A DNA stretch of 64,000 nucleotides from an uncultured Acidobacteriota bacterium (lineage in GTDB: Bacteria > Acidobacteriota > Vicinamibacteria > Vicinamibacterales > CAVVIG01): contig CAVQJU010000001.1 in the NCBI GenBank assembly GCA_963712905.1, positions 64,652-128,651 on the forward strand, in the 5' to 3' direction. Both the position numbers and the translations under genes were made by a program. Below are positions 4,387-63,591 of the stretch, piece by piece (position 1 is the first letter of the stretch; each line of letters starts with the position of its first letter). Below the pieces are notes generated by a model. It was not told the DNA's origin. It did no database searches and saw nothing but the letters and a program-made list of their open reading frames with translations.

Positions 4387-4389
4387 GCC

Positions 4390-7009: not shown

Positions 7010-7037
7010 AGACGGGCGGCGCATCGGCAAGCGCGTC

Positions 7038-7976: not shown

Positions 7977-12816
<4,840 letters not shown>

Positions 12817-17295: not shown

Positions 17296-17308
17296 TGTGT
17301 GATTGCAT

Positions 17309-30295: not shown

Positions 30296-30344
30296 GCAAG
30301 CCCTGTCGTGCCGGTGCGCCTGAAGCCCTGCAAGGAGATCCTGT

Positions 30345-32084: not shown

Positions 32085-32200
32085 CCGGCAGTACGAGCTC
32101 GGACGCGGGAGGGCTTCTGGTGCCCCGCCAATTCGTCAGAAATCCTAGCGTTTCTGCGTGACCTTGCGTCAGCGGCCCCGCGGACCGTTTGGTCGTCAAC

Positions 32201-32215
32201 GGCACGGCGCGTGCT
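32201..32215 (+). promoter_or_regulatory. Sigma-54 (-24/-12) promoter of the second DUF3011-porin gene / downstream operon
   Basis: GGCACGGCGCGTGCT differs from the 30281 copy at a single spacer position. Confidence 0.6.
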
Positions 32216-32227
32216 CCCGCCGGGTGT

Positions 32228-33852
32228 ATGCCGTCTACAACGGGTGTGTGGCGATTCAGCCGGGACGCGTTTCGACGTTGGGGCGCTCTCATCGTCCGGC
32301 CGGTCTTGTGTGGGCTGCTGATGGCGGGAACAGCCAGCGGCCAGTCGTCGAGTGGTGCCGGAAGTGGGGACAAGGGCGACCGCGGCGCCATCCAGCCTCC
32401 GGCGTCCATCGTCTGTGAATCCACGGGCAACCAACGCAACCACTGCGACGCCGACACGTCGGCGGGCGTTGCGCTGATGCGATCGACCGGCAGCGGAGCG
32501 TGTCTCCTGGGCAAGACCTGGGGCTACGACGACACCGGCGTGTGGGTGTCGGATAAATGCGGCGGCGAGTTCGGTCTGGGTCAGTCCGGAGTGCAAGCAA
32601 GGCCAGCCACCGAACCCGGGCCGTCCTCCTGGCGCGCCACCGCCGCATCGAGACGTGGGGCGAGTTCGATCCCGGCGAGGGATTCCTGGTCGGCCGGAGC
32701 GAAGCGGCGGCGAGCTGTCGATCAGCGCCTACGCGCTGATTCGCTACATCAACCAGATGCCCGCCACGCAGACGTTCACGGACCATCTGGGCATCGAGCA
32801 CTCGGTGGACGGCCGCAACGACCTGTTCCCGCACCGCATCATGGTCTTCATGAAGGGCTGGCTCGGCAATCCGAAACTCGTCTACAACATCTTCTTCTGG
32901 ACCGTGAATCCGACGGACCAGAAGAACATCTTCGCGGTCATGGGCTACCAGTTCTCGCGCCGCTTCAGCCTGTATGCCGGCCTCAACGGGTTGCCAGGCA
33001 CGCGTTCGCTGCAGGGCTCGCACCCGTACTGGCTCGGGCACGACCGCGTGATGGCCGACGAGTTCTTCCGGCCGTACTTCTCGAACGGGATCTGGGCGCA
33101 GGGCGAGGTCACTCCGGGGCTCTGGTACAACGTCATGGCCGCCAACAACCTGAGCGCGCTTGGCTTCAAGGCGACGCAACTGGACCGGACGATGGGGCAC
33201 CGGCGGCTCGATGTGGTGGATGCCGACGACGAAGGAGTTCGGACCGACGGGCGCGTACGGCGACTGCGAGATGCACGAGAAGCTCGCCACCCGGTTCGGC
33301 TTCTCCACCACCTACGCCCCTCAGGAGCAGCGCTACACGGATTCGGTGACGGGCGCGACAGGCAGCACGCTCATCAAGCTGGCGGACAGCCTGAACGTCT
33401 TCGACACGGGCGCGCTGGCGCCGGGCGTCACGGTGCAGAACGTGAACTACCGGCTGCTGTCGTTCGATGCCGGCATGAAATACAAGGGGTTCTTCCTGCA
33501 GACCGAGATCTACAACCGGTGGCTCGACGGCTTCAAGGCCGACGGGCCGCTGCCGGTCAGCTCGATCCACGACTCCGGCTTCTACGTGCAGGGCGCGTTC
33601 TACCCGATTCCGAAGAAGCTGGAGATCTACGGCGCGACGTCGCAGATTTTCGGCGACACGTCGGCCGGCTTCAGCACGAGCAGCGAATACATCGGCGGCG
33701 GGAACTTCTATCCCTTCGACACGCGCAACCATCCGGTTGAACGTGCAAGTCCAGAAAGTGAATCGACTCGCCGGTCGGCAGCACGTTCGGCTACTACGTC
33801 GGCGGCCAGACACGGCACGACGTTCTCGACGGCGTTCTCGGTGTTCTTCTGA
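32228..33852 (+). pseudogene. Second DUF3011-domain / porin-like fusion protein (paralog of 30345..31952), multiple frameshifts
   Basis: The DUF3011-like module (IVCESTGNQRNHCDAD...ACLLGKTWGYDDTGVWVSDKCGGEF) lies in ORF 32189... The barrel is colinear with the paralog but spread over ORFs 32557.., 32655.. and 33160... Breaks fall near 32.60-32.71 kb (at least two), near 33193, and at three closely spaced sites near 33731, 33765 and 33815. The start must lie downstream of the promoter at 32201 (ATG 32228 or GTG near 32246). Confidence 0.75.
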
Positions 33853-36322: not shown

Positions 36323-37365
36323 TGTTCAGGAACCTGCTCGTAACGCGGCGCCGCCGCTTCATGGCGGTGATTGCCGCCAGTGTCATGGCCGGCGGGCTCG
36401 TGCTCACCGCCCAGGGCCCCGATCCGCAGACTGCCGTCAACAACGCGTTCAACCAGTTCAAGGCCCTCAAGGAAGGCAAGAACGCGGACTACATCCCGGC
36501 GCTGGCCAAGGTGGATCCGAACCTGTACGGGATCGCGTTGATCACCGTGGACGGCAAGGTCTATACGGCCGGCGACATCAAGACCGAGGTCTCGATTCAG
36601 TCGATTTCCAAGGTCTTCACGATGGCGCAGGTCATCCAGGAGCAGGGCCTCGACGCGATCGAGAAGCGGATCGGCGTCGATGCGACCGGCGCGCGGTTCA
36701 ATTCGATTATCGCTGTCGAGGGCGTGAAGGTAGTGGCCGGAGCGGGCGCGCCGGAGATGAACCCGCTCGTCAATCCGGGTGCGATCTCGGCGACCAGCAT
36801 GGTCACCGGCGCCAACTCCGACGCCGTGTGGAAGAAGATCATCGGCACCTACAACGACTACGCCGGCCGTAACCTGACCGTGCTGCAGGACGTGTACAAG
36901 TCGGAATCCGACTCCAACCAGCGCAACCAGGCGATCGGCGCCCTGATGCTCGCCTACGGCTACATCAAGTCCAACTGGCCGCAGGCCGTCGATCTCTACA
37001 CCCGGCAGTGCTCGGTCGGCGTCAACGCCAAGGATCTGGCGATGATGGCCGCGACGCTGGCCGCGGGCGGAAAGAACCCGGTCACCGGCAAGGTGGTACT
37101 CGATCCGGCGAAGGTCCCGGGCGTCCTGGCGGTGATGGCGACGGCTGGCCTGTATGACGACTCCGGCAAGTGGCTCTACCATACCGGCCTGCCCGCGAAG
37201 AGCGGCGTCGGCGGCGGGATCATCGCCGTGGCCCCCGGCAAATTCGGGATCGCGGTCATCTCCCCCCCGCTCGACGATGCGGGCAACAGCATTCGTGCGC
37301 AGCGCGCGATTGCCGCCATCTCGAATGCGCTCGGCGCCAATCCGTACGCCGCCCGGCCGAAGTAG
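36319..37365 (+). CDS. glsA: Glutaminase A with twin-arginine signal peptide
   Basis: Core glutaminase sequence is present (YIPALAKVDPNLYGIALITVDGKVY, SIQSISKVFT, NPLVNPGAI, SGVGGGIIAV). The N-terminus TRRRRFMAVIAASVMAGGLVLTAQG looks like a Tat signal. An RBS AGGAGGA lies upstream. Confidence 0.9.
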   Translation: MMFRNLLVTRRRRFMAVIAASVMAGGLVLTAQGPDPQTAVNNAFNQFKALKEGKNADYIPALAKVDPNLYGIALITVDGKVYTAGDIKTEVSIQSISKVFTMAQVIQEQGLDAIEKRIGVDATGARFNSIIAVEGVKVVAGAGAPEMNPLVNPGAISATSMVTGANSDAVWKKIIGTYNDYAGRNLTVLQDVYKSESDSNQRNQAIGALMLAYGYIKSNWPQAVDLYTRQCSVGVNAKDLAMMAATLAAGGKNPVTGKVVLDPAKVPGVLAVMATAGLYDDSGKWLYHTGLPAKSGVGGGIIAVAPGKFGIAVISPPLDDAGNSIRAQRAIAAISNALGANPYAARPK

Positions 37366-37382
37366 GGCGCGTGCGGTACGGA

Positions 37383-37420
37383 CCCGCGGGGCGGCCGGGG
37401 GGCAGCCCCGCGGGTGTTTT
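37383..37420 (+). terminator. Rho-independent terminator after glsA
   Basis: A perfect 9-bp GC stem, CCCGCGGGG (37383-91) / CCCCGCGGG (37406-14), encloses a 14-nt loop and is followed by TGTTTT. Confidence 0.75.
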
Positions 37421-37449
37421 GACGGGCCGGCCTTCTCAACGGCTACAAT
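37419..37449 (+). promoter_or_regulatory. Candidate sigma-70-type promoter for the 37502 gene
   Basis: TTGACG (37419-24) and TACAAT (37444-49). The 19-nt spacer is longer than optimal. Confidence 0.3.
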
Positions 37450-37501
37450 CGTTGGGCCGCTCGACCTGATTCAAGACGTTGGCATTGCACCAGAGGGTTT
37501 C

Positions 37502-39823
37502 ATGAGGATTCACCGTCGTTCTTTCCACACCGTCGTCGCGCTGGTCACGGCTGCCAGCGTGCTGTTCACGCCGATCGTCCCCGTCCTTCGCGCGCAGACC
37601 GCCGCCGCGCCGAAGACCACCACCGCTGCCAAGCCCGCGGCTGCCGCCAGCACCGCCAATGCGGCGGCGGTTGACGGCGGATGGCCGCGGGACTACGTCA
37701 CCGCCACCGGCGGCGCGCTGCGGGTCTTCCAGCCGCAGATCGCCAGCTGGGACGGCCAGCGCAAGATGGTGGCTTATTCGGCAGTGTCGTTCATCCCGAA
37801 GGGTGCATCGAAGCAGACGATGGGCACCGTCAAGTTCGAAGGCGACACGTCGGTCGCGGTCGACCAGCGCCTGGTCAACTTCACCGAGGTGAAGGTGACG
37901 GAGTCGAGCTTTCCGAACGCGTCGAACGATCAGATCAAGGAAATCACGGGCGAGATCGTCAAAAACGGGCCGCAGGGCGAGATGATCATCGCGCTCGACC
38001 GCGTCCTCGCCCGGCTGGACAAGAGCCAGATTATTCCGAAGAACGTCGCGGACGTGAAGGCGGACCCGCCGCCGATCTTCTACAGCGCGTCGGACGCCAT
38101 CCTCGTGAACATCGACAGCGATCCGATCTGGAGCCCGATCATGGGCAACGATCTCAAGTTCGCCGTCAACACCAACTGGGACCTGTTCCAGCACTCGCAG
38201 ACCAACACGTACTACCTGCGCTACAACGAGAGCTGGCTGTCTGCCACCGACATCAAAGGCGAGTGGAAGCCCGCTGGCAAGCTCCCCGACAGTTTCAAAG
38301 AGCTGCCAGGGGAGAAGGACAAGGACACGGACAACTGGAAGGAAGTGAGGGACGCGCTTCCGGGCAAGTCGCTGAAACCCTCGCAGGTACCCAAGGTGTT
38401 CGTGAGCACGACGCCGGCCGAGATGATCTTGCTGCGCGGCCCGGCGAGCTACGTGACGGTTGGGAACACGCAGCTGCTCTGGGTGAACAACACGGAGAGT
38501 GACGTATTCCGGATGGGCAGGACGGGCCCCGTCTACTTCCTGATTTCGGGCCGCTGGTTCAGCGCCCCCGACTTCACGGGCCCGTGGACGTTCGCGACGC
38601 TGTCGCTGCCGCCGGAGTTCAAGCAGATCCCGCTCTCGCACGACCGGTCGCGCGTGCTCGCGTCGGTGCCGGGCACCGACCAGGCCGCCGAGGCGGTGCT
38701 GCTCGCGCAGATCCCGCAGATCGCCACGGTGAACAAGAAACAGATCAAAGCGCCCGAAGTGGCGTACGACGGCGGCATGCCGACGTTCCAGCCGATCGAG
38801 AAGACGAACCTGCAGCGCGCCGCGAACACCGACAAAGACATCATCAAGGTCGGCGACCTCTATTACATGTGCTTCCAGGGCGTCTGGTTCATGGGCAAGA
38901 GCCCGACCGGTCCGTGGGAAGCGACAGGTTCCGTGCCGGGTGAGATCTACACGATTCCGGCGAGCTCGCCCTCGCACAACGTCACCTACGTGACGGTGCA
39001 GGAAGACAAGGACGATACGGCCGTGTACGTCGCCGCTGCGGCTTACACCGGCATGATGATCGCGTGGGGCTGCGTCGTCTGGGGGAGCGGGTATTACTAC
39101 CCGCCGTACATGTACCCGTACGGAGGCTTCTACCCGGTCTATCGTCCGTACTACCCGTCCTACGGCTACCACGCGTCCTACAACCCGTGGACCGGCGCCT
39201 ACAGCCGCGGCGTGTCGGCCTACGGTCCGTACGGCGGGGCCGGCGTCGGCGCGAGCTACAACCCCAGGACCGGGACGTACGCGCGGGGCGCCGCGGCCTA
39301 CGGTCCGTACGGGGCGCGAGGCGCGGCGAGTGCGTACAACCCGCGGACCGGCGCGGTCGGCGCGACACGACAGGGGTCGAACGTCTACGGCAGCTGGGGA
39401 TCGACGGCCGTTGCGCGCGGCGATCAGTGGGCATCGACGTCTCGCGTCACGAACAACCGGACCGGCAACACCACCCGCGTCACGCAGGGCAGCGGCGGCG
39501 GCGAGGCGATTTCGCGCAACACGCCCGGACCGGGCGGCGGCACCGTTGCGCGGACGGGCAGCGGCGACGTGTACGCAGGCCGCGACGGGAACGTCTACAA
39601 GAAGGATGCGGGCGGCGGCTGGTCGGAAGCGAACGGCAACAACGCCCGTCCCGACACCTCCACGGCCGGGCAGCTCAATCGTGATTCGGCCGCGCGTGCC
39701 GAAGGTGCCCAGCGCACGCGCGATTACAGCAGCTCGAGCGGCGGACGGACGGGAGGATCGAGCTACCGCCCGAGCAGCGGCGGGATGTCGCGGGGTGGCG
39801 GCGGCGGCGGACGACGGCGATAA
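37502..39823 (+). CDS. Large secreted protein of unknown function with Tyr/Gly/Pro-rich repetitive C-terminal region
   Basis: The ATG at 37502 is in frame with track ORF 37154..39823. A signal peptide (VALVTAASVLFTPIVPVLRAQ) is followed by about 520 aa of non-repetitive region. Next come YYYPPYMYPYGGFYPVYRPYYPSYGY and three repeats of about 26 aa of the type SYNP(W/R)TG.Y.RG..AYGPYG. A Gly/Ser/Arg tail ends GGGGGGRRR. Confidence 0.75.
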   Translation: MRIHRRSFHTVVALVTAASVLFTPIVPVLRAQTAAAPKTTTAAKPAAAASTANAAAVDGGWPRDYVTATGGALRVFQPQIASWDGQRKMVAYSAVSFIPKGASKQTMGTVKFEGDTSVAVDQRLVNFTEVKVTESSFPNASNDQIKEITGEIVKNGPQGEMIIALDRVLARLDKSQIIPKNVADVKADPPPIFYSASDAILVNIDSDPIWSPIMGNDLKFAVNTNWDLFQHSQTNTYYLRYNESWLSATDIKGEWKPAGKLPDSFKELPGEKDKDTDNWKEVRDALPGKSLKPSQVPKVFVSTTPAEMILLRGPASYVTVGNTQLLWVNNTESDVFRMGRTGPVYFLISGRWFSAPDFTGPWTFATLSLPPEFKQIPLSHDRSRVLASVPGTDQAAEAVLLAQIPQIATVNKKQIKAPEVAYDGGMPTFQPIEKTNLQRAANTDKDIIKVGDLYYMCFQGVWFMGKSPTGPWEATGSVPGEIYTIPASSPSHNVTYVTVQEDKDDTAVYVAAAAYTGMMIAWGCVVWGSGYYYPPYMYPYGGFYPVYRPYYPSYGYHASYNPWTGAYSRGVSAYGPYGGAGVGASYNPRTGTYARGAAAYGPYGARGAASAYNPRTGAVGATRQGSNVYGSWGSTAVARGDQWASTSRVTNNRTGNTTRVTQGSGGGEAISRNTPGPGGGTVARTGSGDVYAGRDGNVYKKDAGGGWSEANGNNARPDTSTAGQLNRDSAARAEGAQRTRDYSSSSGGRTGGSSYRPSSGGMSRGGGGGGRRR

Positions 39824-42789: not shown

Positions 42790-42801
42790 AGGAGACGCGC
42801 G

Positions 42802-44355
42802 ATGGCCAAGACTGCGAAGACGGACAAGCCGAACATCCTGGTGATCTGGGGCGACGACATCGGGATTTCGAACTTGAGCTGCTACTCGCACGGCCTCATG
42901 GGATATGAGACGCCCAACATCGATCGGCTCGCGAAGGAAGGCATGATGTTCATCGACTCCTACGGTGAGCAATCCTGCACGGCAGGGCGGTCGGCGTTCA
43001 TCTCGGGCCAGAGCGTGTTTCGCACGGGCCTCTCCAAGGTCGGCGCCCCCGCCGCCCCGGTCGGCATGAACGAGAAGATTCTGACGATCGCCGGCGCTCT
43101 GAAGAACCAGGGCTACGCCACGGGACAGTTCGGCAAGAACCATCTCGGCGATCTCAACCACATGCTGCCGACCAACCACGGGTTCGACGAGTTCTACGGG
43201 AACCTGTACCACCTGAACGCCGAAGAAGAACCGGAAATGCACGACTACTTTCCGGAGAAGGATTTTCCGAACTACAAGAAGAACTTCGGCCCCCGCGGCG
43301 TCATCCATTCGTATGCGACCGACAAGGACGATCCCACCGAGGAGCATCGCTGGGGGCGGGTGGGCAAGCAGCGGATCGAGGACACCGGCCCGCTGACCCG
43401 GACGCGGATGGAGACGTGCGACGACGACTTCGTGGACAAGGCCAAGGACTTCATCAAGCGCCAGGAGGCGGACGGCAAGCCCTTCTTCGTGTGGCTCAAC
43501 TTCACCCACATGCACCTCTACACCCACCCGAAGCCGTCGAGCGTCGGCCAGGCGGGGCGGTGGCAGTCCATTTATCACGACACGATGATCGACCACGACA
43601 AGAACGTCGGGCAGATGCTCGACTACCTCGACGAGCTCGGCATCGCCGAGAACACCTTCGTCATGTATTCCACCGACAACGGGCCGCACCGCAACTCGTG
43701 GCCCGACGGCGGCATGACACCGTTCCGCAGCGAGAAGAACACGAATTGGGAAGGCGCCTTCCGCATCCCGCTGGTGGTGCGCTGGCCCGGCAAGATCAAA
43801 GCCGGTTCCGTCTCCCGCGAGATCATCCAGCATCACGACTGGTTCCCGACGTTTCTGGCCATGGCCGGCGAGCCCGACGTCGTGGAGAAGGCGAAGAAGG
43901 GGTACCAGGCGATCGGCCGCACCTACAAGAACCACATCGACGGCTACAATCTCCTTCCGTACCTCACGGGCAAGGAGAAAGAAAGCCCGCGCAAGCTGTT
44001 CTTCTACATCAGCGACGACGGCGACGTGCTCGCGATCCGCTACGACAACTGGAAGATCGTGTTCATGGAGCAACGGTGCCACGGCACCATGCAGGTCTGG
44101 TCGGAGCCGTTCACCCGGCTGCGGCTGCCGAAGCTCTTCAATCTCAGGACCGACCCGTACGAGTTCGCCGACATCACGTCGAACACCTACTACGAGTGGT
44201 TCATCCGCCGGAACTACATCGTGTTCGGGGCGATGATTCTCGCGAACAAGTTCGCGGATACGTTCAAGGAATTCCCGCCGATCCAGAAGCCCAACAGCTT
44301 CACGATCGACGACGCCATCAACGCGATGGCCGATGTCTCGGGGGCGAATCACTGA
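42802..44355 (+). CDS. Arylsulfatase (Cys-type, formylglycine-dependent), no signal peptide
   Basis: Contains NILVIWGDDIG, the FGly motif SCTAGRSAF (C-x-A-x-R), GKNHLGD and YSTDNGP. The N-terminus has no hydrophobic signal. Confidence 0.9.
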   Translation: MAKTAKTDKPNILVIWGDDIGISNLSCYSHGLMGYETPNIDRLAKEGMMFIDSYGEQSCTAGRSAFISGQSVFRTGLSKVGAPAAPVGMNEKILTIAGALKNQGYATGQFGKNHLGDLNHMLPTNHGFDEFYGNLYHLNAEEEPEMHDYFPEKDFPNYKKNFGPRGVIHSYATDKDDPTEEHRWGRVGKQRIEDTGPLTRTRMETCDDDFVDKAKDFIKRQEADGKPFFVWLNFTHMHLYTHPKPSSVGQAGRWQSIYHDTMIDHDKNVGQMLDYLDELGIAENTFVMYSTDNGPHRNSWPDGGMTPFRSEKNTNWEGAFRIPLVVRWPGKIKAGSVSREIIQHHDWFPTFLAMAGEPDVVEKAKKGYQAIGRTYKNHIDGYNLLPYLTGKEKESPRKLFFYISDDGDVLAIRYDNWKIVFMEQRCHGTMQVWSEPFTRLRLPKLFNLRTDPYEFADITSNTYYEWFIRRNYIVFGAMILANKFADTFKEFPPIQKPNSFTIDDAINAMADVSGANH

Positions 44356-44368
44356 CGATTGACAGCAT

Positions 44369-44506
44369 GGTCCCTGGTTCTTGGGCCTTGGTTCTTGGTC
44401 CGTCCCTGGTCCCCGGTCCTTGGTGCGCGGACTGAGAGTGGGGCAGGATGGACGAAGGACTGAGGACCAGGGACGGACCAGGCACCAAGAACGAAGGACC
44501 AAGGAC
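44369..44506. repeat. Imperfect long hairpin with GGTCC/GGACC tandem-repeat arms, sited between sulfatase and FGE genes
   Basis: The left arm (44369-44430) carries GGTCCCTGGTTCTTGGGCCTTGGTTCTTGGTCCGTCCCTGGTCCCCGGTCCTTGG. The right arm (44452-44506) is rich in GGACGAAGGAC/GAGGACCAGGGACGGACC. The element fills almost the whole 155-nt gap between two co-oriented genes. Confidence 0.8.
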
Positions 44507-44510
44507 GACG

Positions 44511-45380
44511 ATGATCGATGGAATGGTCGGGATCCCGGGCGGCACGTTCCGCATGGGATCCGACCATCACTACCCCGAGGAGGCGCCGGCGCGTCAGGCG
44601 ACCGTCGGCGCGTTCTGGATGGACCCGCATGTTGTCACCAACGCCGAGTTCGCCCGGTTTGTCGACGCGACGATGCACGTCACCCTCGCCGAACGTCCGG
44701 TCGATCCGGCCACCTATCCCGACGCCAAACCTGAACTGCTGATTCCATCGTCGGTGGTGTTTCAGAAGGCCGCCGGGCCGGTGGACATGAGCAACCACTT
44801 CAACTGGTGGACCTACGTGCCGGGCGCCGACTGGCGGCACCCGCGCGGCCCGGAGAGCTCCATCGACGGTCTCGCCGACCACCCCGTCGTGCACGTCGCG
44901 TTCGAGGACGCCGAGGCCTACGCGAAGTGGGCCGGCAAGGAACTGCCGACCGAAGCGGAATGGGAGTTCGCCGCGCGCGGCGGCCTCGACGGCGCGTCGT
45001 ACGTCTGGGGCGAGGAGTTCATGCCCGGCGGCAAGGCGATGGCGAACACCTGGCAGGGTTCGTTTCCGTGGCAGAACCTGCTCATGGACGGCTACGAGTG
45101 GACCGCGCCGGTCGGTTCGTTTCCGCCCAACGGCTACGGGCTGTACGACATGGCCGGCAACGTCTGGGAATGGACGACGGACTGGTATCCGGACGGGCCG
45201 GCGCCGGCGAAGTCGTGCTGCACGGCGGGGAATGGCGGGCCGAAGCGCAAGGTGATGAAGGGCGGTTCGTACTTGTGCGCGCCGAACTACTGCCGCCGCT
45301 ACCGTCCGGCGGCGCGGATGGCGCAGGAAGCGGACAGCGCGGCATGCCACCTCGGTTTCCGCTGCATAATCAGGGCGTGA
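44511..45380 (+). CDS. Formylglycine-generating enzyme (SUMF1/FGE family)
   Basis: Contains GGTFRMGS, HPVVHVAFEDAEAYAKWAGKELPTEAEWEFAARGG, YDMAGNVWEWT, RKVMKGGSYLC and GFRC. The start is taken at ATG 44511, because the upstream part of the track ORF is repeat-encoded. Confidence 0.9.
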   Translation: MIDGMVGIPGGTFRMGSDHHYPEEAPARQATVGAFWMDPHVVTNAEFARFVDATMHVTLAERPVDPATYPDAKPELLIPSSVVFQKAAGPVDMSNHFNWWTYVPGADWRHPRGPESSIDGLADHPVVHVAFEDAEAYAKWAGKELPTEAEWEFAARGGLDGASYVWGEEFMPGGKAMANTWQGSFPWQNLLMDGYEWTAPVGSFPPNGYGLYDMAGNVWEWTTDWYPDGPAPAKSCCTAGNGGPKRKVMKGGSYLCAPNYCRRYRPAARMAQEADSAACHLGFRCIIRA

Positions 45381-55178: not shown

Positions 55179-56438
55179 ATGGCTTCCGCCGTGACACTCA
55201 ACCCGTTCCAAAGGCGCGAGTTCCACCTGCTGTCGAAGCCCACGGGCGCCGTCTGCAACCTCGACTGCAAATACTGCTTCTTCCTTTCGAAGGAGATGCT
55301 CTACCCGGGCAGCCGCTTCCGCATGGCCGACGACATGCTGGAGACCTACATCCGGCAGCTGCTCGAGTCGCAGCCTGGTCCCGAGGTCGCGGTCGCGTGG
55401 CAGGGCGGCGAGCCCACGCTCATGGGCCTCGACTTCTTCAAGCGGTCCGTCGAGCTCGTCGAGCGGCACCGGCGGCCGGCCCAGCGCGTCGCGTACACGC
55501 TGCAGACCAACGGCACGAAGATCGACGACGAGTGGGCCGCTTTCCTGGCCGAGCACAAGTTCCTGATCGGCCTGAGCGTGGACGGCCCGCGTGATCTGCA
55601 CGACCTGTATCGCGTCGACAAAGGCGGCCAGGGCAGCTTCGATCAGGTCATGGAGGGGTGGCGCGCCCTCGCGGCGAGGAACGTCGACGTGAACATCCTG
55701 TGCACCGTGCACAACGCCAACGGCGACCACCCGCTCGACGTCTACAGGTTCTTTCGCGACGAGATCGGCGCCAAGTACGTCCAGTTCATCCCGATCGTCG
55801 AGCGGGTCACCTCGGAGCTGCTGCCGATCGCGAACATGGGCTGGGGCGAGCGAGGCAGCGATCCGCGTCCGCTGTACATCACCGAGGGGCACCACGTCAC
55901 CGACCGTTCCGTCGGCTCGGAGCAGTGGGGGCGATTCCTGATCGGCGTCTTCGACGAGTGGATCAAGAAGGACGTCGGGACCGTGTTCGTGCAGATGTTC
56001 GACGCCGCGCTGGCGTCGTGGGTCGGCGCGCCGGCGTCGATGTGCGTGTTCGCGGAGACGTGCGGCAACGCCCTCGCCCTCGAGCACAACGGCGACCTCT
56101 ACTCCTGCGATCACTTCGTCGAGCCGAAGCACCTGCTGGGGAACATCAAGGACGTCCACATGCTGGAGCTCGTGTCGTCGCCGCAGCAGGTGGCGTTCGG
56201 CCTGGCGAAGCGCGACACGCTACCGAAGTACTGCCGCGAGTGCGAGGTGCGCTTCGCCTGTCACGGCGAGTGCCCGAAGAACCGGTTCATCAACACGCCT
56301 GACGGAGAACCCGGCTTGAACTACCTCTGTGCCGGCTACATGGCGTTCTTCAAGCACGTCGATCGCCCGATGAAGATGATGGCCGACCTGCTGAAGCGCG
56401 GCCGCTACGCCGACGAGGTCATGGCGCTCCTGTCCTAG
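55179..56438 (+). CDS. Anaerobic sulfatase-maturating enzyme (radical SAM/SPASM)
   Basis: The radical-SAM CNLDCKYC is followed by GGEPTL. The C-terminal SPASM Cys clusters are present (CVFAETCG, CDHF, CRECEVRFACHGECPKNR). Confidence 0.9.
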   Translation: MASAVTLNPFQRREFHLLSKPTGAVCNLDCKYCFFLSKEMLYPGSRFRMADDMLETYIRQLLESQPGPEVAVAWQGGEPTLMGLDFFKRSVELVERHRRPAQRVAYTLQTNGTKIDDEWAAFLAEHKFLIGLSVDGPRDLHDLYRVDKGGQGSFDQVMEGWRALAARNVDVNILCTVHNANGDHPLDVYRFFRDEIGAKYVQFIPIVERVTSELLPIANMGWGERGSDPRPLYITEGHHVTDRSVGSEQWGRFLIGVFDEWIKKDVGTVFVQMFDAALASWVGAPASMCVFAETCGNALALEHNGDLYSCDHFVEPKHLLGNIKDVHMLELVSSPQQVAFGLAKRDTLPKYCRECEVRFACHGECPKNRFINTPDGEPGLNYLCAGYMAFFKHVDRPMKMMADLLKRGRYADEVMALLS

Positions 56439-57161: not shown

Positions 57162-57746
57162 TCAGCTCGCGCGTGCAAGACCAGCGTGCTCGGCGACGAA
57201 CCGGACGAACCCATCCACGGCCTGCCAGTCAGTGAACTCCCAGTCGCGCGAGGTGTCGGTGGACGCGCCGTTGTGCCTGGCGATTTGTTTCATCGCCAGC
57301 TTTACCAGGAAGTTGTATTTCGAGTAGGCGAGCGCTCCGGCGACCGGGAGCGTATAGGCCGGCGTCCAACCGGTGTCGGCAGCGAACACATCAATCATGT
57401 GGCGGACGTCGGCGGATGCCTGACGGCGCCTGTCGGGCGGCGCCGCCTCATCCTGGGCGCCGGCCTGCGACAGCGACAACGAGAGCAATGCGGCGCCCGC
57501 AGCCTCGAGCTCGCGGCGGTATTGCGTCACGAAGCGCCGCATCTCGCGCTCGTGGCGGCCAAGGTGCACGGACGCGACGACGAAGATGGCGCGGTAGGCC
57601 TGCCACGAGATGCGATCGTTCAGGGTGCGGACGTCGAAGAGATCGACGTCGAGACCCTGCGCCTGCAGACCGGCGGCGGCGCGCTCGGCCACCCGCCGCG
57701 CCTGGCCTTCACGGGTGGCGTAGAAGACGGCTGCGCTGGGTGTCAT
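57162..57746 (-). CDS. hemG: Flavodoxin-like protoporphyrinogen oxidase (HemG-like)
   Basis: AVFYATREGQARRVAE ... FVVASVHLGRH ... AGALAYSKYNFLVKLAMKQIA ... EFTDWQAVDGF is colinear with HemG as I remember it. Confidence 0.7.
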   Translation of the reverse strand: MTPSAAVFYATREGQARRVAERAAAGLQAQGLDVDLFDVRTLNDRISWQAYRAIFVVASVHLGRHEREMRRFVTQYRRELEAAGAALLSLSLSQAGAQDEAAPPDRRRQASADVRHMIDVFAADTGWTPAYTLPVAGALAYSKYNFLVKLAMKQIARHNGASTDTSRDWEFTDWQAVDGFVRFVAEHAGLARAS

Positions 57747-57892
57747 GGCGTCCTCCTTGGAGGCCAGGCTCTTGCGTTTTGCACACTCGATAACGACGCA
57801 AACATCGTTCCGGAAGGCGCTGCCGAGATTTCGTCACGTTGTGATTGCTATCGTGTTAGGTTACGTTTCATCTCTCGCTCAAGGAGGCCCGC

Positions 57893-58213
57893 ATGCTTCG
57901 CACGGGATTGATCGTGCTCGCCATCAGCGCGTTCGCCGCCGCAGCGGCAGCCCAGGATGCCGCCGCCGGCGCCAAGGTGTACGTGGATCAGAAGTGCTCC
58001 GTCTGCCACTCGATCGCCGGCAAGGGTAACGCCAAGGGACCGCTAGACGACGTGGGCAAGATGCCCGCCGACGATATCCGGGCGTGGATCACCGACGCGA
58101 AGGGCATGACCGAAAAGACCAAAGCACCCCGGAAGCCCGTGATGAAGCAGTACGCGCTCCCCAAGGGCGACGTGGACGCGCTCGTGGCCTACCTGTCGAC
58201 GCTCAAGAAGTAA
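57893..58213 (+). CDS. Monoheme class I c-type cytochrome
   Basis: It has a signal peptide, a single CSVCH and a distal Met region (KPVMKQY) in 106 aa. An RBS AAGGAGG lies upstream. Confidence 0.85.
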   Translation: MLRTGLIVLAISAFAAAAAAQDAAAGAKVYVDQKCSVCHSIAGKGNAKGPLDDVGKMPADDIRAWITDAKGMTEKTKAPRKPVMKQYALPKGDVDALVAYLSTLKK

Positions 58214-58217
58214 TCCA

Positions 58218-59564
58218 GTGACGGGCGACGTCCGGCTGATCCGCAGCCCGATTTCGGTTGCGGGCATGGTGTTGACCACGATCAGCGCCGTGGTGTTTCT
58301 CGTCGTGTTCCTGGCCGACCTGTTCGGCCTTCACACGAACCCGTACCTCGGCATCGTCTTTTTCGTCGTGGTGCCCGCGCTGTTCCTCGGCGGACTCCTG
58401 CTGATTCCGCTGGGGGCCTGGAGAGAGCGCCACCGTCGCGCTGCCGGCAAAGCGCCCTCGGCGGTGCAGTGGCCGCGCGTGGACCTGAACGACGCGCGCC
58501 AGCGGCGGATTGCCGTCATCGCGTTTACGTTGACGATGGCGAACATCGTGATCGTGTCGCTGGCGGCGTACGGCGGCGTCGAATACATGGATTCGGTGGG
58601 GTTTTGCACGCAGGTCTGCCACCCGATGAAGCCGGAGCTCCGCGCGCACCGGCAGGGGCCGCACGTGCGGGCCCGCTGCGTGGAATGCCATATCGCGCCG
58701 GGCGCGTCGGGCTTCGTCGCCGCCAAGGCCGCGGGCACCCGGCAGCTCGTGTCGATCGCCTTCGGGACCTACCCCCGTCCGATTACCGCCGAGGCGGACG
58801 ATCTCGTCTCGGCGGGCCAGACCTGCGAGCGCTGCCACTTCTCCGGCGGCTATCACGCCGAGGTCCTGCGCAGCGTGGTCGAGTACGGCGATGACGAGGC
58901 GAATACGCGCACAGTGACGAACCTCCAGATGCACGTCGGCGGGGGCGAAGGGCGGCTGGCGGCGGTCCGCGGCATTCACTGGCACGCGAACCCGGGCACG
59001 CGGGTCGAGTACATCGCCACCGATGAAACGCGACAGACGATTCCTTACGTCAAGGTGACGGCCGCCGACGGCGCCGTCCGCGAGTACAAGGCCGAAGGCG
59101 CAACGTCCGAGCTCGTCGCGGCAGGAAAGCGCCGCCGCATGGAGTGTCTGGACTGTCACAATCGCGCCGGGCATCCGACGCCGGCGACGGCCGCGCGGGC
59201 GGTCAACGAAGCCCTGGCGCGGAACGCGATTCCGGCGACGCTGCCCTTCGTGCATCGCGAGGCCGCGAAGGCGCTCACCGCCAGCTACCCGTCGGAGGAC
59301 GCCGCCCTCGGCGAGATCGCGCGCGCGCTGAAGGCGTTCTACCAGACACAGCAGGCGACGGAGGTCGAGCGGACGATTGCGACGGTGCAGCAGCTGTACC
59401 TCCGCAGCGTCGTCCCGGAAATGAACGTGAAGTTCGGCACCTATCCCGACAACGTGGGTCACATCGATTTCCCTGGCTGCTTCCGCTGCCACGACGACGA
59501 GCACAAGACCTCGGATGGCCGGGCGATCGGCCAGGACTGCGAAACATGCCACAAGATCGAGTAA
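58218..59564 (+). CDS. Inner-membrane multiheme c-type cytochrome (NapC/NirT- or ImcH-like), three N-terminal TM helices
   Basis: Three hydrophobic helices lie in the first ~130 aa. They are followed by CTQVCH (CxxxCH) and five CxxCH motifs (CVECH, CERCH, CLDCH, CFRCH, CETCH). Confidence 0.8.
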   Translation: MTGDVRLIRSPISVAGMVLTTISAVVFLVVFLADLFGLHTNPYLGIVFFVVVPALFLGGLLLIPLGAWRERHRRAAGKAPSAVQWPRVDLNDARQRRIAVIAFTLTMANIVIVSLAAYGGVEYMDSVGFCTQVCHPMKPELRAHRQGPHVRARCVECHIAPGASGFVAAKAAGTRQLVSIAFGTYPRPITAEADDLVSAGQTCERCHFSGGYHAEVLRSVVEYGDDEANTRTVTNLQMHVGGGEGRLAAVRGIHWHANPGTRVEYIATDETRQTIPYVKVTAADGAVREYKAEGATSELVAAGKRRRMECLDCHNRAGHPTPATAARAVNEALARNAIPATLPFVHREAAKALTASYPSEDAALGEIARALKAFYQTQQATEVERTIATVQQLYLRSVVPEMNVKFGTYPDNVGHIDFPGCFRCHDDEHKTSDGRAIGQDCETCHKIE

Positions 59565-59596
59565 CCACCGCCCCTCCCGCAAAGGCGCGGCACACC

Positions 59597-60502
59597 ATGA
59601 AATGGCTTCTCGCGGCGGCGATATCCGTATGGGCCGTGACGGTCTATGCGCAGCGGCCGGCCCAGCCCGCGCCTCCGGCAGCCGACGCGTTTGCCGGCGA
59701 CGATACGTGTGTCGCGTGTCACGAAACCGAGGGCAAGCGGCTGTCCACGACGCTCCACGGCCGGGCGCAGAACGTTCGAACCCCTTCGGGGAACAAGAAC
59801 CAGTCCTGTGAAACCTGCCACGGGCCGGGCAAGGAACACTCGGAGAGCGGCGACAAGACGAAGATTCGTGTCTTCCCGGCAATGGCCCCGCGCGACGCGT
59901 CGGCGGTCTGCACGACCTGCCACAGCCGCGGCGCCCATGCCCAGTGGAAGGGCAGCATGCACGACGCCCGCAACCTGAGCTGCGTCACCTGCCATTCCGT
60001 CCACAGTCCGAAGGCCGAGCACGCGCAGCTCAAGGAAGCCACCATCACCGACACCTGCGTGGCCTGTCACAAGACCCAGGTCGCCAAGCAGCAGCGCTTC
60101 GGCCACATGCCCCTTCGCGAGGGGAAGATGGAGTGCAGCGCCTGCCACAACCCGCACGGATCGACGAACCTCAAGATGCTGAAAGTCGGCAACTTCGTCA
60201 ACGAGACGTGCGTGAGCTGCCACACCGAGAAGCGCGGGCCGTTCCTCTGGGATCACGCGCCGGTGCGCGAAGCGTGCAACACCTGCCACGACCCGCACGG
60301 ATCGAACAACGAGCGGATGCTCGTGGCCAAGCTGCCCATGATGTGCCAACGCTGTCACATCGGCACGCGGCATCCCTCGACGATTTACGACGCCAACCAG
60401 CTCGCGTCGCGCAGCAATCGGCTCATCGGCCGTGGCTGTGTGAACTGTCATTCCCAGATTCACGGGTCGAACAGCCCCGCGGGCAACACGTTTCTCAGGT
60501 AG
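59597..60502 (+). CDS. Periplasmic decaheme c-type cytochrome, MtrA/DmsE/PioA/MtoA family
   Basis: The ATG at 59597 is in frame with track ORF 59144..60502. It has a signal peptide (AISVWAVTVYAQ) and exactly ten CxxCH motifs in 301 aa, with the closely spaced pattern typical of MtrA. Confidence 0.9.
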   Translation: MKWLLAAAISVWAVTVYAQRPAQPAPPAADAFAGDDTCVACHETEGKRLSTTLHGRAQNVRTPSGNKNQSCETCHGPGKEHSESGDKTKIRVFPAMAPRDASAVCTTCHSRGAHAQWKGSMHDARNLSCVTCHSVHSPKAEHAQLKEATITDTCVACHKTQVAKQQRFGHMPLREGKMECSACHNPHGSTNLKMLKVGNFVNETCVSCHTEKRGPFLWDHAPVREACNTCHDPHGSNNERMLVAKLPMMCQRCHIGTRHPSTIYDANQLASRSNRLIGRGCVNCHSQIHGSNSPAGNTFLR

Positions 60503-60505
60503 GCC

Positions 60506-62713
60506 ATGATCATGCGACTGCGATGCTCACTCGCTCTCGTCACGTGCCTCCTGGCGCCGGCCACGCTCCTGGCTCAGGAGCCGCCGGCCGCGCCGCCACT
60601 CTCGCCTGATTCCTTCGAGAATTATGCGGAGTTCACGGTCCGTGGCACCGCCTTCGCCGAAGGGTCGGACGAGGCGCGCTTCATGCGGTATCGCGACCTG
60701 CGGAACGGCGGCACCCTCGACATTCTCCGGATGACGAGGGCGTCCGATTCGAAATGGTTCAACCTCCAGGCCGACCACGTGGGCTACCGCGATCAGCGGT
60801 TCTCCGCGGCGATGAACGACTACGGCAAGGTGAAGCTGTCGTTTGAATGGAACCAGATCCCGCTGTTCTTCAGCCAGGACACCAGGACGCTGTTCACGAC
60901 GACGACACCGCTTGGCGAGTTGCGGATCAGCGATCCGATCCAGAGCGCGGCCCAGAGCAACCCGCAGAGCATCCGGGTCGCGGCCGGCACCCTGGCGCAA
61001 CCCTTCGACCTGCGGCTCAAGCGAAGCATCGCCGACGTGAGGGCCCTTTACAGCGTCAACGAGAACCTGGACCTGAGCCTGATCTACCGGAGCACCGGGA
61101 AGACCGGATCGCAGCCGTGGGCCGGCACGTTCGGCTTCGGCGACGCCGTGGAACTGGCCGTCCCGGTTCAAACGCGCACCAACGAAGTCGGCGTTGCCGG
61201 CGAGTGGGCGAACCCGCGCGGGCTGGTGCGCGTCGGCTACGACGGCTCGTTCTTCCGGAACGACACCAACCTCGTCTGGGACAACCCGCTCCGCATCACG
61301 GATTCGCCGACGGCGGGACCGTTCCAGGGCCGCATGTCGCTCTGGCCCGACAGCAACATGAACGCGGCGAACGTCTCGGGCATGGTGAACCTGCCGAAGA
61401 ACAGCCGGGCGACGGCGTATCTGTCGGTAGGCAGCTGGACCCAGAACGACATCCTGATTCCTTTCACGATCAACACCGCGTTGCCGACGATTCCGCTCGA
61501 TCGCGCCACCGCCGACACGCAGGCGCGCGTGACGAGCATGAACTACACGTTCAACTCGCGCCCGACCAGCACCGTGTGGTTCTCCGCCCGATACTGGACC
61601 TACGATTTCGACAACCACACGCCGGAGTTTCATGTAGGCCAGACGGTGACCTACGACACCACGGTCGCGACGTTCGCCGAAGGCGCGACCAGCCCGTACA
61701 GCCTGAATCGGAAGACGTTCGACGCCGACGTGTCGTTCACCCCGTGGAAACACAGCGCGTTCCGCGCCGGCTACACCAGGGCCAACGTGAGCCAGACGTT
61801 TCGCTCCGTCGACGAGACCGGCGACAACATCTTCCGGTTGTCGGCCGACACGTCCGGGCTCGAGTGGGTCATGCTCCGGGCCGTCTACGAACACTCGAAT
61901 CGCACGGGCTCCGGGTTCGACGACCAGGTGCTGGACGAAATCGGCGAACAGGACTCGCTGCGCCAGTTCGACATCTCCGACCGCACGGCGAACCGCGTGT
62001 CGTTCCTGGTGCAGGTCACGCCCGTGTCGCCGCTCTCGCTCCACGCCACGGTCTCGGTCGGCAACGAGGACCGGCCCGAGACCGTCAACACGGGCGCCGG
62101 CGGAAAGCCCGAGCCGGTCTTCGGCCTGCTCAGCAACGATAATCACTCATACTCGATCGGGGCCGATTACGTGCCGCGTCAGGACGTGTCGTTCGGCGCC
62201 GAGTACGTGTGGGAGCGCTACAGCACGCTGCAGAAGTCGCGGCAGGCCAACCCGGGCGTGCAGTTCGACGACCCGACCAGAGACTGGACGACCGACGGCT
62301 CCGACAAGGCGAACACGTTCACCGTCTCGATGGACCTGCTCAAGCTGCTGCAGAAGAAGACCGACTTCCGCGCGACCTACGACTACAGCCACGCCGAAAC
62401 GCAGTACATCTACGGCCTCGCGCCCAACACCACATTGCCCCCGGTCAGCCAGCTGCCGCCGGTCGTCAACACACTGCAGCGGGCGACCGCCGACCTGCGC
62501 TACCACTTCACGTCGCACTTTGGCGCCGGCTTCGTCTACTGGTTCGACAAGTACACCGTGAACGACTTCGCATCCGGCGCCGAGACGCTGACGAGCATCG
62601 TGCAGCCGACGGTGGCGGCGCCACAACCGGTGCCAAACTTCCTGATGATTGGGTATCTGACGCGGCCGTACACCGCCCACACCTTCTCGGGGCGGTTCAC
62701 GTACTACTGGTAG
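60506..62713 (+). CDS. MtrB/PioB-family outer-membrane beta-barrel (decaheme-associated)
   Basis: The 735-aa protein has a signal peptide and an N-terminal RYRDLRNGG region. A long alternating beta-strand pattern ends ...GRFTYYW. The gene starts 3 nt after the decaheme gene stop. Confidence 0.85.
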   Translation: MIMRLRCSLALVTCLLAPATLLAQEPPAAPPLSPDSFENYAEFTVRGTAFAEGSDEARFMRYRDLRNGGTLDILRMTRASDSKWFNLQADHVGYRDQRFSAAMNDYGKVKLSFEWNQIPLFFSQDTRTLFTTTTPLGELRISDPIQSAAQSNPQSIRVAAGTLAQPFDLRLKRSIADVRALYSVNENLDLSLIYRSTGKTGSQPWAGTFGFGDAVELAVPVQTRTNEVGVAGEWANPRGLVRVGYDGSFFRNDTNLVWDNPLRITDSPTAGPFQGRMSLWPDSNMNAANVSGMVNLPKNSRATAYLSVGSWTQNDILIPFTINTALPTIPLDRATADTQARVTSMNYTFNSRPTSTVWFSARYWTYDFDNHTPEFHVGQTVTYDTTVATFAEGATSPYSLNRKTFDADVSFTPWKHSAFRAGYTRANVSQTFRSVDETGDNIFRLSADTSGLEWVMLRAVYEHSNRTGSGFDDQVLDEIGEQDSLRQFDISDRTANRVSFLVQVTPVSPLSLHATVSVGNEDRPETVNTGAGGKPEPVFGLLSNDNHSYSIGADYVPRQDVSFGAEYVWERYSTLQKSRQANPGVQFDDPTRDWTTDGSDKANTFTVSMDLLKLLQKKTDFRATYDYSHAETQYIYGLAPNTTLPPVSQLPPVVNTLQRATADLRYHFTSHFGAGFVYWFDKYTVNDFASGAETLTSIVQPTVAAPQPVPNFLMIGYLTRPYTAHTFSGRFTYYW

Positions 62714-62762
62714 GGTTAGAGGTTAGAGGTTAGGGACTGGGGGCTGGGGGCTGGGGAGTGTG
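62714..62762. repeat. Tandem 7-mer array after the mtrB-like gene
   Basis: GGTTAGA appears three times, then GGCTGGG-type units three times, starting directly after the stop codon. No complementary arm is evident. Confidence 0.7.
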
Positions 62763-62763
62763 G

Positions 62764-62784
62764 GGCGGCCCTTTCAGGGCCGCC
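62764..62784. terminator. 8-bp GC hairpin between convergent genes
   Basis: GGCGGCCC-tttca-GGGCCGCC. The stop codon of the minus-strand cytochrome c' gene lies in the loop. Confidence 0.55.
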
Positions 62785-63169
62785 GATTCGCAATCCGCAG
62801 GTCCTTCAGCCGCCGATGGCACTGGTAGCAGGACGTCGTCAGCGCGTTGTACTGCACGGCGGCGGCGTCGAAGTCGTTCCGTTTCGCCGCCGCGTCGAGT
62901 TCCGCCACCGCCTTCAGGAAGCTGTCGGTGTAGATCCCCAGCTCACGTGTCCTCAGTTCCGCCCACCGCGGCGATTTCGCGATAACGACGAGCGCACCGC
63001 TTTCCGCCGTCAGCAGATCGCGGTTGCTCGTCGTCAGCGCTTCGAGGATCTTCTGCGCGTGCGTGAGCTTTTCGCGCATCATTGCGCCCGTCCGCGCCGT
63101 TTGAGCGGCCGGGCTGCCGGCCGAGAGGGTGAGGATGGCGGCCATGAGCAGAGCGGTACGGATAGTCAC
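62774..63169 (-). CDS. Cytochrome c' (class II, four-helix-bundle type)
   Basis: About 130 aa with a signal peptide (ALLMAAILTLSAGSPAAQ), helical sequence and a single CYQCH close to the C-terminus. The GTG start at 63169 overlaps the upstream stop (GTGA). Confidence 0.7.
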   Translation of the reverse strand: MTIRTALLMAAILTLSAGSPAAQTARTGAMMREKLTHAQKILEALTTSNRDLLTAESGALVVIAKSPRWAELRTRELGIYTDSFLKAVAELDAAAKRNDFDAAAVQYNALTTSCYQCHRRLKDLRIANRRP

Positions 63170-63591
63170 TTTTGAATCGACTCCAGGTAGGCGACAACGT
63201 TGAAGATACGGACGGTCACGACCTTGTCGTTCGGGTCCAGGGCGGTGAACGTGGGTCCCCAGACAGGCATGTCGGTGGATCCGTGCGCGGGTATCGCCCG
63301 CTCGCCCGTCGTGACGAACGCGCGGACGCGGTCTTTCGGAAACACGCCGCCGTTGCGCGCGGACAGCGTCGTCAGATCCGCGGGAAGCGTCTTCAGCGCC
63401 TCGGCCACGGGGCCGCGGCCCCTGCCGTCCTTTCCGTGGCACGGGGCGCAGTAGAAGGCGTACGTGTCGCCGCCGACGAGGGACGGGTTGGCCAGCGACG
63501 GTGAGATGTCCACCGTGGATCGCTGGCCTCCGGCTCCCGCCGCCGCCATCGCGACTACGAATCCCGCGGCCATCAGGCCCTTCAGCACCAT
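63166..63591 (-). CDS. Monoheme class I c-type cytochrome
   Basis: It has an N-terminal hydrophobic anchor/signal, CAPCH and a distal MPVWG region. Confidence 0.8.
   Translation of the reverse strand: MVLKGLMAAGFVVAMAAAGAGGQRSTVDISPSLANPSLVGGDTYAFYCAPCHGKDGRGRGPVAEALKTLPADLTTLSARNGGVFPKDRVRAFVTTGERAIPAHGSTDMPVWGPTFTALDPNDKVVTVRIFNVVAYLESIQK

Follow-up and report, generated by a model that had tools for sequence, protein, structure and literature searches.

The 64-kb window, that is, the whole 64,000-nucleotide stretch of Vicinamibacterales DNA analysed here (contig CAVQJU010000001.1), carries at positions 57893–62713 four co-oriented genes, called g1 to g4 below. They encode a small secreted cytochrome c, an inner-membrane multiheme cytochrome, a periplasmic decaheme cytochrome and an outer-membrane porin. 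Together, the four genes very probably specify a complete envelope-spanning conduit for electrons that links the pool of quinones with the cell surface. The genes lie exactly where the original prediction, made from the letters of the window, had placed them. All four open reading frames (ORFs) are intact and are separated by gaps of 4, 32 and 3 nt (g1/g2, g2/g3 and g3/g4, respectively). Protein lengths are in amino acids (aa):

57893–58213, + strand: g1, secreted class I monoheme cytochrome c, 106 aa
58218–59564, + strand: g2, ImcH-family inner-membrane hexaheme cytochrome, 448 aa, GTG start
59597–60502, + strand: g3, MtrA/MtoA-type periplasmic decaheme cytochrome, 301 aa, signal peptide, ten CxxCH motifs
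60506–62713, + strand: g4, MtrB/PioB-type outer-membrane porin, 735 aa, signal peptide, C-terminal beta-signal ...FTYYW

The four genes probably form one operon, and they account for 17 hemes in total. The G+C content at third codon positions of g1, g2 and g4 (0.86–0.91) is the same as that of the other real genes of the window, and the lengths of the four proteins agree with those of their homologs (106/106, 448/455, 301/301 and 735/735 residues, respectively). The N-termini of g1, g3 and g4 are signal-peptide-like.

The inner-membrane component, g2, is assigned to the ImcH family because of its architecture, its GSU3259-like heme spacing and its 49% identity to a listed homolog. The family is defined by three transmembrane (TM) helices, a CX3CH first heme motif and five to nine CX2CH motifs (Zhong & Shi 2018). 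The g2 protein has three TM segments, a single CX3CH motif located beside the membrane (CTQVCH at residue 130) and five CX2CH motifs (at residues 154, 203, 310, 421 and 441), which are the numbers given in the original prediction. Hydropathy analysis places the three N-terminal hydrophobic segments at residues ~10–42, 38–69 and 97–121, and the AlphaFold2 model, in which the heme domain is unmodelled, contains helices 11–35, 42–75 and 93–134. The TM helices of Geobacter GSU3259 span residues 13–35, 45–67 and 100–122, and its heme motifs are spaced 25/49/106/117/20/38 residues apart (Zhong & Shi 2018, Table S3). The spacing in g2 is 24/49/107/111/20, so that only the seventh heme is missing. The closest listed relative is the 455-aa protein of locus L023 (451 bits) from Acidobacteria bacterium RIFCSPLOWO2_12_FULL_66_21. 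Its length, organism and motif positions are those listed in Table S3, which identifies it as the ImcH homolog OFW24447.1. The g2 protein also contains a NapC/NirT region (Pfam PF03264, 30.8 bits, above the cut-off of 24.1). The suggestion that it is nearer to ImcH than to CymA is thus borne out. The family is large: g2 has more than 3,300 matches in a 90%-clustered database, and 635 of the 50%-identity representatives match it at E ≤ 1e-30. Among the 150 best cluster representatives, neither the heme positions nor the C-terminus of GSU3259 were found.

A 2023 preprint on purified ImcH describes H137 and Q179 as ligands of heme 1 and E127, K173 and Y188 as conserved residues of the quinone site. 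By position offsets only, these residues correspond to H135, Q176, D125 (or E122), K170 and Y185 of g2. All members of the g2 alignment share K170 and D125, and 23 of 24 family members have Y185. The CX3CH heme 1 of g2 is a putative quinone site. Two further features of this region are an invariant H-x-N-P-Y motif in the short loop that joins TM1 to TM2 on the periplasmic side (residues 39–43) and an invariant methionine that follows the CX3CH motif (residues 135–137). The latter sequence is C-H-P-M in g2, which is the CHxM pattern of the Met-ligated heme 1 of NrfH. Both may be part of the quinone/heme-1 site.

The g1 protein matches Pfam Cytochrom_C (44 bits) and carries a single heme motif, C35-S-V-C38-H39, which agrees with the secreted CSVCH monoheme protein described earlier. 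C35, C38, H39, W65 and M84 are conserved across 42 g1 homologs. Since H39 is the only histidine in the protein and C35, C38, H39 and M84 are all conserved, the heme is likely His/Met-ligated, with Met84 as the sixth ligand. Of 89 loci, 61 contain a g1 homolog, and in 40 of 80 genome loci the gene immediately upstream of the ImcH-like one encodes a class I cytochrome c. The proposed parallel to MtoD did not hold: no similarity between g1 and MtoD could be detected, and MtoD is a bis-His class I monoheme cytochrome. A better parallel is PmcA of Sideroxydans, a His/Met monoheme protein that is encoded next to imoA and interacts with both MtoA and ImoA, although the similarity of g1 to PmcA is limited to the heme-motif region (E 0.002). 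The argument that His/Met ligation entails a high potential and hence an oxidising direction of electron flow was considered and dropped, because PmcA, with the same ligation, sits at −143 mV.

The decaheme cytochrome g3 contains exactly ten CxxCH motifs and scores 251.2 bits against TIGR03508 (DmsE/MtrA family), well above the cut-off of 192.2, as expected from its earlier description as an MtrA/DmsE-type protein. It matches MtrA of the MtrCAB structure 6R2Q (6r2q_A) with an E of 4e-59 and is 41% identical to it over 271 columns, with ten of ten heme motifs aligned.

The g4 protein matches Pfam PF11854 (MtrB_PioB) with 273.8 bits over profile positions 4–635 of 635 (gathering score 23). Its AlphaFold2 model, built from 36 homologs, contains 26 long antiparallel strands, in which the predicted local distance difference test (pLDDT) is mostly 80–92. 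In a Foldseek search, MtrB (6r2q_B) comes first (E 8e-22, template-modelling scores of 0.66 and 0.73), and the next-best matches are 22-strand TonB-dependent receptors with scores of at most 0.40. The protein has no heme motifs. Its only two cysteines, C7 and C14, are within the signal peptide, so the mature protein is Cys-free and the N-terminal CXXC of the MtrB proteins of metal-reducing gammaproteobacteria is absent. Homologs of g4 are annotated as MtrB/PioB family by JGI and, in metagenome-assembled genomes (MAGs) of Vicinamibacterales, by NCBI. The protein collection contains many MtrB homologs of this kind, most of them from metagenome-derived sources.

That the family of g3 is named after DmsE raises the alternative that the module resembles DmsEF or Nrf and feeds a dedicated terminal reductase for dimethyl sulfoxide (DMSO), iodate or nitrite. 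Weak matches of g2 to the NrfH model (56 bits) and of g3 to the NrfB model (55 bits) point the same way, but both scores are far under their cut-offs of 134 and 184 bits. Neither a molybdopterin reductase, NrfA nor any other catalytic subunit is encoded among the genes that flank the module in the window, and there is no reductase within 10 kb of g4 in the closest relative or in the gene tables of L004–L009. The conserved unit comprises only the four cytochrome and porin genes. A reductase-feeding role is therefore highly improbable.

The predicted two-component layout, in which no MtrC/OmcA-type surface cytochrome accompanies the decaheme protein and the porin, holds for the window and for 25 related loci. 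The c-type cytochrome ORFs of the window are confined to 57.9–63.6 kb, and the window has no multiheme ORF beyond g2 and g3, hence no MtrC-like gene. An MtrC-sized protein is likewise missing from all 25 MtrB-containing loci of the relatives. Among multiheme proteins of relevant size, these loci encode only the hexaheme and the decaheme, except for three in which a periplasmic cytochrome with 9 to 11 hemes is present as well. In the closest relative, there is no multiheme gene of MtrC size within 10 kb on either side of g4.

Relatives of g2 are encoded in at least 581 species-representative genomes, of which the 80 best were taken for the counts over genome loci. Acidobacteriota (Vicinamibacterales, Terriglobia, Bryobacterales) make up most of these 80, and Ignavibacteriota, Zixibacteria and KSB1 are also represented. 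Together with the MtrB homologs of Vicinamibacterales MAGs, this confirms the Acidobacteriota-like background surmised from the window itself. In 21 of the 80 genomes, mostly labelled Vicinamibacterales, an MtrB-family gene lies within the flank of the ImcH-like gene. All four genes are also found together in contigs from soil metagenomes (g2 identity 63–89%). In the contigs L004–L006, the identities to the window proteins are 88% for g2, 92% for g3 and 78% for g4. More distant contigs retain only the four module genes, and their order varies: c-ImcH-MtrA-MtrB in L007, MtrA-MtrB-c-ImcH in L009. The arrangements g1-g2-g3-g4 and g3-g4-g1-g2 and a convergent form all occur, and the g1-g2 pair is the most constant unit. 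Because the four genes recur together in many genomes, their association is not due to chance, and because the linkage survives permutation of the gene order, there is good evidence that they constitute a functional unit.

In another explanation, g1 and g2 are mainly a general quinol:cytochrome c oxidoreductase that supplies several periplasmic partners or oxidases, and MtrAB is only one of several interchangeable outputs rather than part of a dedicated machine of four components. An ImcH-like gene with an upstream class I cytochrome c gene occurs without mtrAB in L001, L010, L017, L020, L023 and L034. A further 9- to 11-heme cytochrome, periplasmic like g3, and a cytochrome b are encoded instead in 37 of the 89 loci, and three loci hold this pair together with MtrB-family genes. 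On the other side, the MtrB-family gene adjoins the ImcH-like gene in the window and in the 21 genomes mentioned above despite the permutations of gene order, and the four genes of the window are 3–32 nt apart and share one transcriptional direction. As an account of the window module, a general oxidoreductase is rather unlikely. It refines the conduit explanation and is compatible with it, as g1 and g2 may serve other partners too.

In the loci with this alternative pair, the gene for the multiheme cytochrome and that for the cytochrome b, which is b561-like (Ni_hydr_CYTB), directly precede the ImcH-like gene, e.g. at 6148–9371 of L001, and also in L010, L011, L013, L017, L020, L023, L025 and others. 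The pair looks like a split CbcL-type quinol oxidoreductase, and in L022 the two genes are seemingly fused. L011, L013 and L025 carry both the CbcL-like pair and MtrB-family genes, although no MtrA-type decaheme was detected in L025. In these three loci, homologs of the two alternative quinol oxidases of Geobacter are thus found side by side.

A different arrangement is seen in Terriglobia. In loci of this type, genes for an MtrA-like decaheme, a large protein of 730–980 aa and two class I cytochromes c are followed, in this order, by the ImcH-like gene. This is seen in L076 (an Acidobacteriaceae MAG chromosome, 2199–8416), and L049, L050, L057, L058, L062, L063, L070, L072, L080 and L086 are similar. 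The large protein has no Pfam match and ends in a C-terminal Y-x-F typical of outer-membrane proteins. With a cleaned alignment of it, hhalign returned a probability of 75.9% (E 2e-5, 223 columns), and the reversed control gave 0.6%. An earlier value of 96.5% was set aside, since the alignment behind it contained an ImcH ORF. This protein may, tentatively, be a very divergent MtrB-type porin.

Some contigs with the module or its parts carry unexpected taxon labels: L015, L026, L038 and L055 are labelled Bifidobacteriaceae, Acidimicrobiia or Patescibacteria. Because the module implies a diderm cell, that is, one with an outer membrane, these are probably binning or labelling errors. L055 contains an ImcH-like multiheme cluster, and no MtrB gene was detected in it. 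The regulators beside the module also differ by lineage. L007 has a sigma-54-dependent response regulator (6029–7396), and L009 has an ECF sigma/anti-sigma pair and genes for a PAS sensor and a response regulator (2566–3967 and 14815–17371).

The module of the window is flanked by the following features:

57162–57746, − strand: HemG-like flavodoxin gene, divergent from g1 (Pfam Flavodoxin_5, 93 bits)
57747..57892, no strand: intergenic region that separates the divergent HemG-like gene from g1, putative operon promoter
62764..62784, no strand: hairpin where g4 and the cytochrome c' gene converge, 9-bp G+C stem, GGCGGCCCU-UUC-AGGGCCGCC
~62774–63169, − strand: cytochrome c'-like gene, C-terminal CYQCH (Pfam 23.7 bits, just under the gathering score)
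63166–63591, − strand: class I cytochrome c gene, converging on g4
from 63611, − strand: universal stress protein (USP) gene, downstream on the converging side

These flanks had been described correctly, except that the upstream gene, named hemG in the original prediction, is only HemG-like: its product is a flavodoxin that scores 100 bits against the NCBIfam HemG model (NF008316), under the cut-off of 142. It is possibly a menaquinone-dependent, O2-independent protoporphyrinogen oxidase. The closest contigs (L004–L006) retain the full neighbourhood (HemG-like gene, cytochrome c', cytochrome c and USP), as does the ENA contig L090, in which g4 is 89% identical. The HemG-like position is occupied in L004–L006 and L090, which makes this gene an accessory neighbour of close relatives only. 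The convergent cytochrome c'/cytochrome c pair is likewise an accessory of close relatives only: it is syntenic in L004, L005 and L090, and this synteny is lost in L007 and L009. USP genes recur close to the module in the window, L004, L007, L009 and L090.

The divergent intergenic region probably holds the operon promoter, and reading of the sequence locates a Shine-Dalgarno element, AAGGAGG, 5' of g1 (~57882–57888). Scans for sigma-70 promoter and terminator consensus elements gave counts not above the expectation from shuffled sequences. At the other end of the operon, two arrays of 7-nt tandem repeats (GGTTAGA, 2.9 copies, then GGGGCTG, 3.4 copies) occupy 62714–62756 right after the g4 stop codon. 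They are followed by the hairpin, which is perfect and includes part or all of the stop codon of the cytochrome c' gene on the opposite strand. For the g4/cytochrome c' spacer as a whole, the fold z-score is not significant, and there is no T-run at the hairpin. With low confidence, the hairpin may be a bidirectional terminator.

Further from the module, a radical SAM/SPASM gene (55179–56438) lies in the same window as a sulfatase gene and a gene for an O2-dependent FGE-type sulfatase-modifying enzyme (42790–45380). The radical SAM protein was considered as a cytochrome maturase and rejected: it is an anaerobic sulfatase maturase (TIGR03942, 476 bits, cut-off 349), an assignment that fits the sulfatase and FGE genes upstream. 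Because an O2-dependent FGE and an O2-independent sulfatase maturase are both encoded in the window, the organism seems to be equipped for oxic and anoxic conditions alike. Two paralogous neighbour ORFs, 30324–31952 and 32189–33349, each have an N-terminal DUF3011 domain, and several large ORFs near this pair, such as 37136–39823 (895 aa), have no Pfam match.

Family assignments, architecture and topology signals and conserved linkage are established by the data above; the sequence of electron-transfer steps, the substrates and the direction of flow are what we infer. Anchored in the inner membrane by its three helices, g2 would exchange electrons with the (mena)quinone pool at the membrane-proximal CX3CH heme, a role proposed by analogy with NrfH and ImcH. 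By analogy with PmcA, the soluble g1 would then carry electrons across the periplasm between g2 and g3. The decaheme g3, threaded through the 26-strand porin g4 as in 6R2Q, would move them across the outer membrane. At the outer end of the decaheme, an external partner such as Fe(II)/Fe(III) chelates, humic quinones or Mn species would gain access to the hemes. This partner is probably a soluble or small redox species, since there is no MtrC-type surface cytochrome.

Such a conduit is reversible in principle, and its direction is not decidable from sequence, as the original prediction had stated, because the MtrA and MtrB trees show no function-specific clades (Baker et al. 2022) and His/Met ligation does not imply a high potential. 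Within the conduit model, we lean slightly towards outward flow, that is, quinol oxidation when O2 is scarce. The only demonstrated activity of an ImcH is the oxidation of menaquinol for extracellular acceptors: the Geobacter protein acts as an electroneutral menaquinol oxidase and passes the electrons to periplasmic cytochromes. The neighbours retained in close relatives (HemG-like protein, cytochrome c' and USP) suggest a low-oxygen setting as well.

The opposite direction is a plausible alternative, though we would tentatively decide against it. Here, an Mto/Pio-like module would oxidise extracellular Fe(II), reduced humics or mineral-bound electrons with its MtrAB-type conduit and pass the electrons via the monoheme protein to an ImcH-type quinone reductase and/or a terminal oxidase, for lithotrophic or mixotrophic gain. 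The MtrC-less two-component layout of the window and of the 25 related loci is that of PioAB and MtoAB, and the cluster includes a gene for a small monoheme carrier, like pmcA and mtoD of Sideroxydans. The mature g4 lacks cysteines and so has no counterpart of the N-terminal CXXC that Shewanella MtrB carries, a protein that depends on C42 to reduce Fe(III). The CXXC is reportedly also missing from MtoB and PioB. MtrC may add reductive capacity to an oxidatively inclined MtrAB core, an idea raised by Baker et al. (2022), and the NapC/NirT-type ImoA may run both ways. Against uptake stands the fact that the sole characterised ImcH is a quinol oxidase and that, as of 2018, Fe(III) reducers were the only organisms from which the family was known. 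The hemes of Geobacter ImcH range from −358 to −150 mV, so their reduction by Fe(II) would be uphill. Nothing in the 64-kb window points to autotrophy or a dedicated oxidase, and the HemG-like and USP neighbours suggest expression at low oxygen. Phylogeny, for its part, does not separate the two directions.

Several observations weigh against an outward-flowing conduit or against parts of it. The outward lean is weakened by the fact that the known oxidising systems, MtoAB and PioAB, lack MtrC and employ small carriers in the periplasm, and ImcH-like genes are also found without MtrAB. For g4, the predicted MtrB/PioB-type barrel stands on the Pfam match and the 26-strand fold, but the NCBIfam model TIGR03509 gives 205.6 bits, under its cut-off of 240.05. 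A sequence search of the PDB with g4 returned no match at E ≤ 1, so its relation to MtrB is visible only through the Pfam profile and the fold. The AlphaFold2 models are of modest to low confidence, with pLDDTs of 63 for g4 and 54 for g2. In g2, the position of the presumed heme ligand, 176, is Gln in 10 of 24 family members and Arg in 14, and the correspondence to Geobacter ImcH residues was drawn by position offset rather than by direct alignment.

The combination of a Geobacter-type ImcH with a Shewanella/Sideroxydans-type porin-cytochrome pair is new, although every part belongs to a known family. No mtrAB or mtoAB genes adjacent to imcH were found in the 2018 survey (Zhong & Shi 2018), and no inner-membrane quinone oxidoreductase was found near acidobacterial mtrCAB in that of 2022 (Baker et al. 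2022). A literature search retrieved no paper linking Vicinamibacter to MtoA, MtrA or ImcH and no description of such a module in Vicinamibacteria.

Few gateways are known that lead from the quinone pool to extracellular acceptors, and ImcH is one of them. The partners of Geobacter ImcH had to be found biochemically, as its gene is monocistronic, and knowledge of ImcH interactors would greatly improve sequence-based prediction (Levar et al. 2014). The module described here names candidate partners, encoded beside the ImcH-like gene, and shows that parts of the Geobacter-type and Shewanella/Sideroxydans-type pathways can be combined. With four genes and 17 hemes, it is a compact cassette for heterologous expression. 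Acidobacteriota are an ecologically dominant soil phylum, and Vicinamibacterales and related Acidobacteriota are common soil bacteria. If active, the module would bear on the redox cycling of iron, manganese and humics in ordinary soils. A bolder proposal, which we consider somewhat unlikely, is that the ImcH-cytochrome c-MtrAB operon is the principal route of extracellular electron exchange in Vicinamibacterales and related Acidobacteriota and runs inward from Fe(II) or reduced humics. Were it true, g2 would be the first ImcH-family quinone reductase, and bacteria supposed to be plain aerobic heterotrophs would include an unrecognised iron- or humic-oxidising guild.

Comparison with known systems sets the module apart from each of them. 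With MtrCAB-CymA of Shewanella it shares the logic of quinol oxidoreductase, periplasmic carrier and outer-membrane conduit. As described above, g3 shares 41% identity and all ten hemes with MtrA, and the g4 model superposes best on MtrB. Unlike the Shewanella system, it has no MtrC/OmcA, no CymA and no CXXC in the porin, and its carrier is a monoheme protein, whereas those of Shewanella are the tetrahemes STC and FccA. MtrAB homologs are also found in the Acidobacteriia Group 5 MtrCAB loci, but these have an MtrC and a tetraheme and no nearby inner-membrane quinone oxidoreductase (Baker et al. 2022). The module is the reverse, with an ImcH-type oxidoreductase and no MtrC.

In PioABC of Rhodopseudomonas palustris, a two-component conduit of a decaheme and a porin is likewise combined with a small soluble periplasmic carrier. 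This carrier, PioC, is a HiPIP and not a cytochrome c, and the pioABC operon as published has no gene for an inner-membrane cytochrome. PioA is also much longer than the 301-aa g3.

Geobacter sulfurreducens ImcH (GSU3259) resembles g2 in its three TM helices, CX3CH first heme, NapC/NirT-like region and nearly identical spacing of hemes 1–6. By position offset, its K173, Y188 and Q179 also correspond to a Lys, a Tyr and a Gln in g2. However, it has seven hemes to the six of g2, from which the C-terminal segment with heme 7 is absent. The imcH gene is monocistronic and its product works with PpcA and the Geobacter-type conduits, whereas the g2 gene shares its operon with those for a monoheme cytochrome and for MtrAB homologs. 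These homologs are not of the Geobacter porin-cytochrome type (GSU2203/GSU2204, Pcc/Ext): g3 scores 240.8 bits against NF041028 (cut-off 325) and g4 scores 36.5 bits against NF041027 (cut-off 350).

The closest functional analogue is the PmcA-ImoA-MtoA-MtoB pathway of Sideroxydans lithotrophicus ES-1. The inner-membrane proteins differ, ImoA being a tetraheme of the NapC/NirT type and g2 a three-TM hexaheme of the ImcH family, and the bis-His MtoD has no equivalent in the module, as g1 is neither MtoD nor clearly PmcA. The hosts differ as well: Sideroxydans is a betaproteobacterial lithoautotroph, and the acidobacterium of the window is heterotroph-like. Nevertheless, in both organisms one cluster combines an MtrA-type decaheme, an MtrB-type porin (with no MtrC), an inner-membrane multiheme cytochrome that interacts with quinones, and a small periplasmic cytochrome with a single heme. 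PmcA is His/Met-ligated, as g1 likely is, and in both cases the gene for the small cytochrome stands beside that for the inner-membrane cytochrome. The module thus works like Mto without being a member of it.

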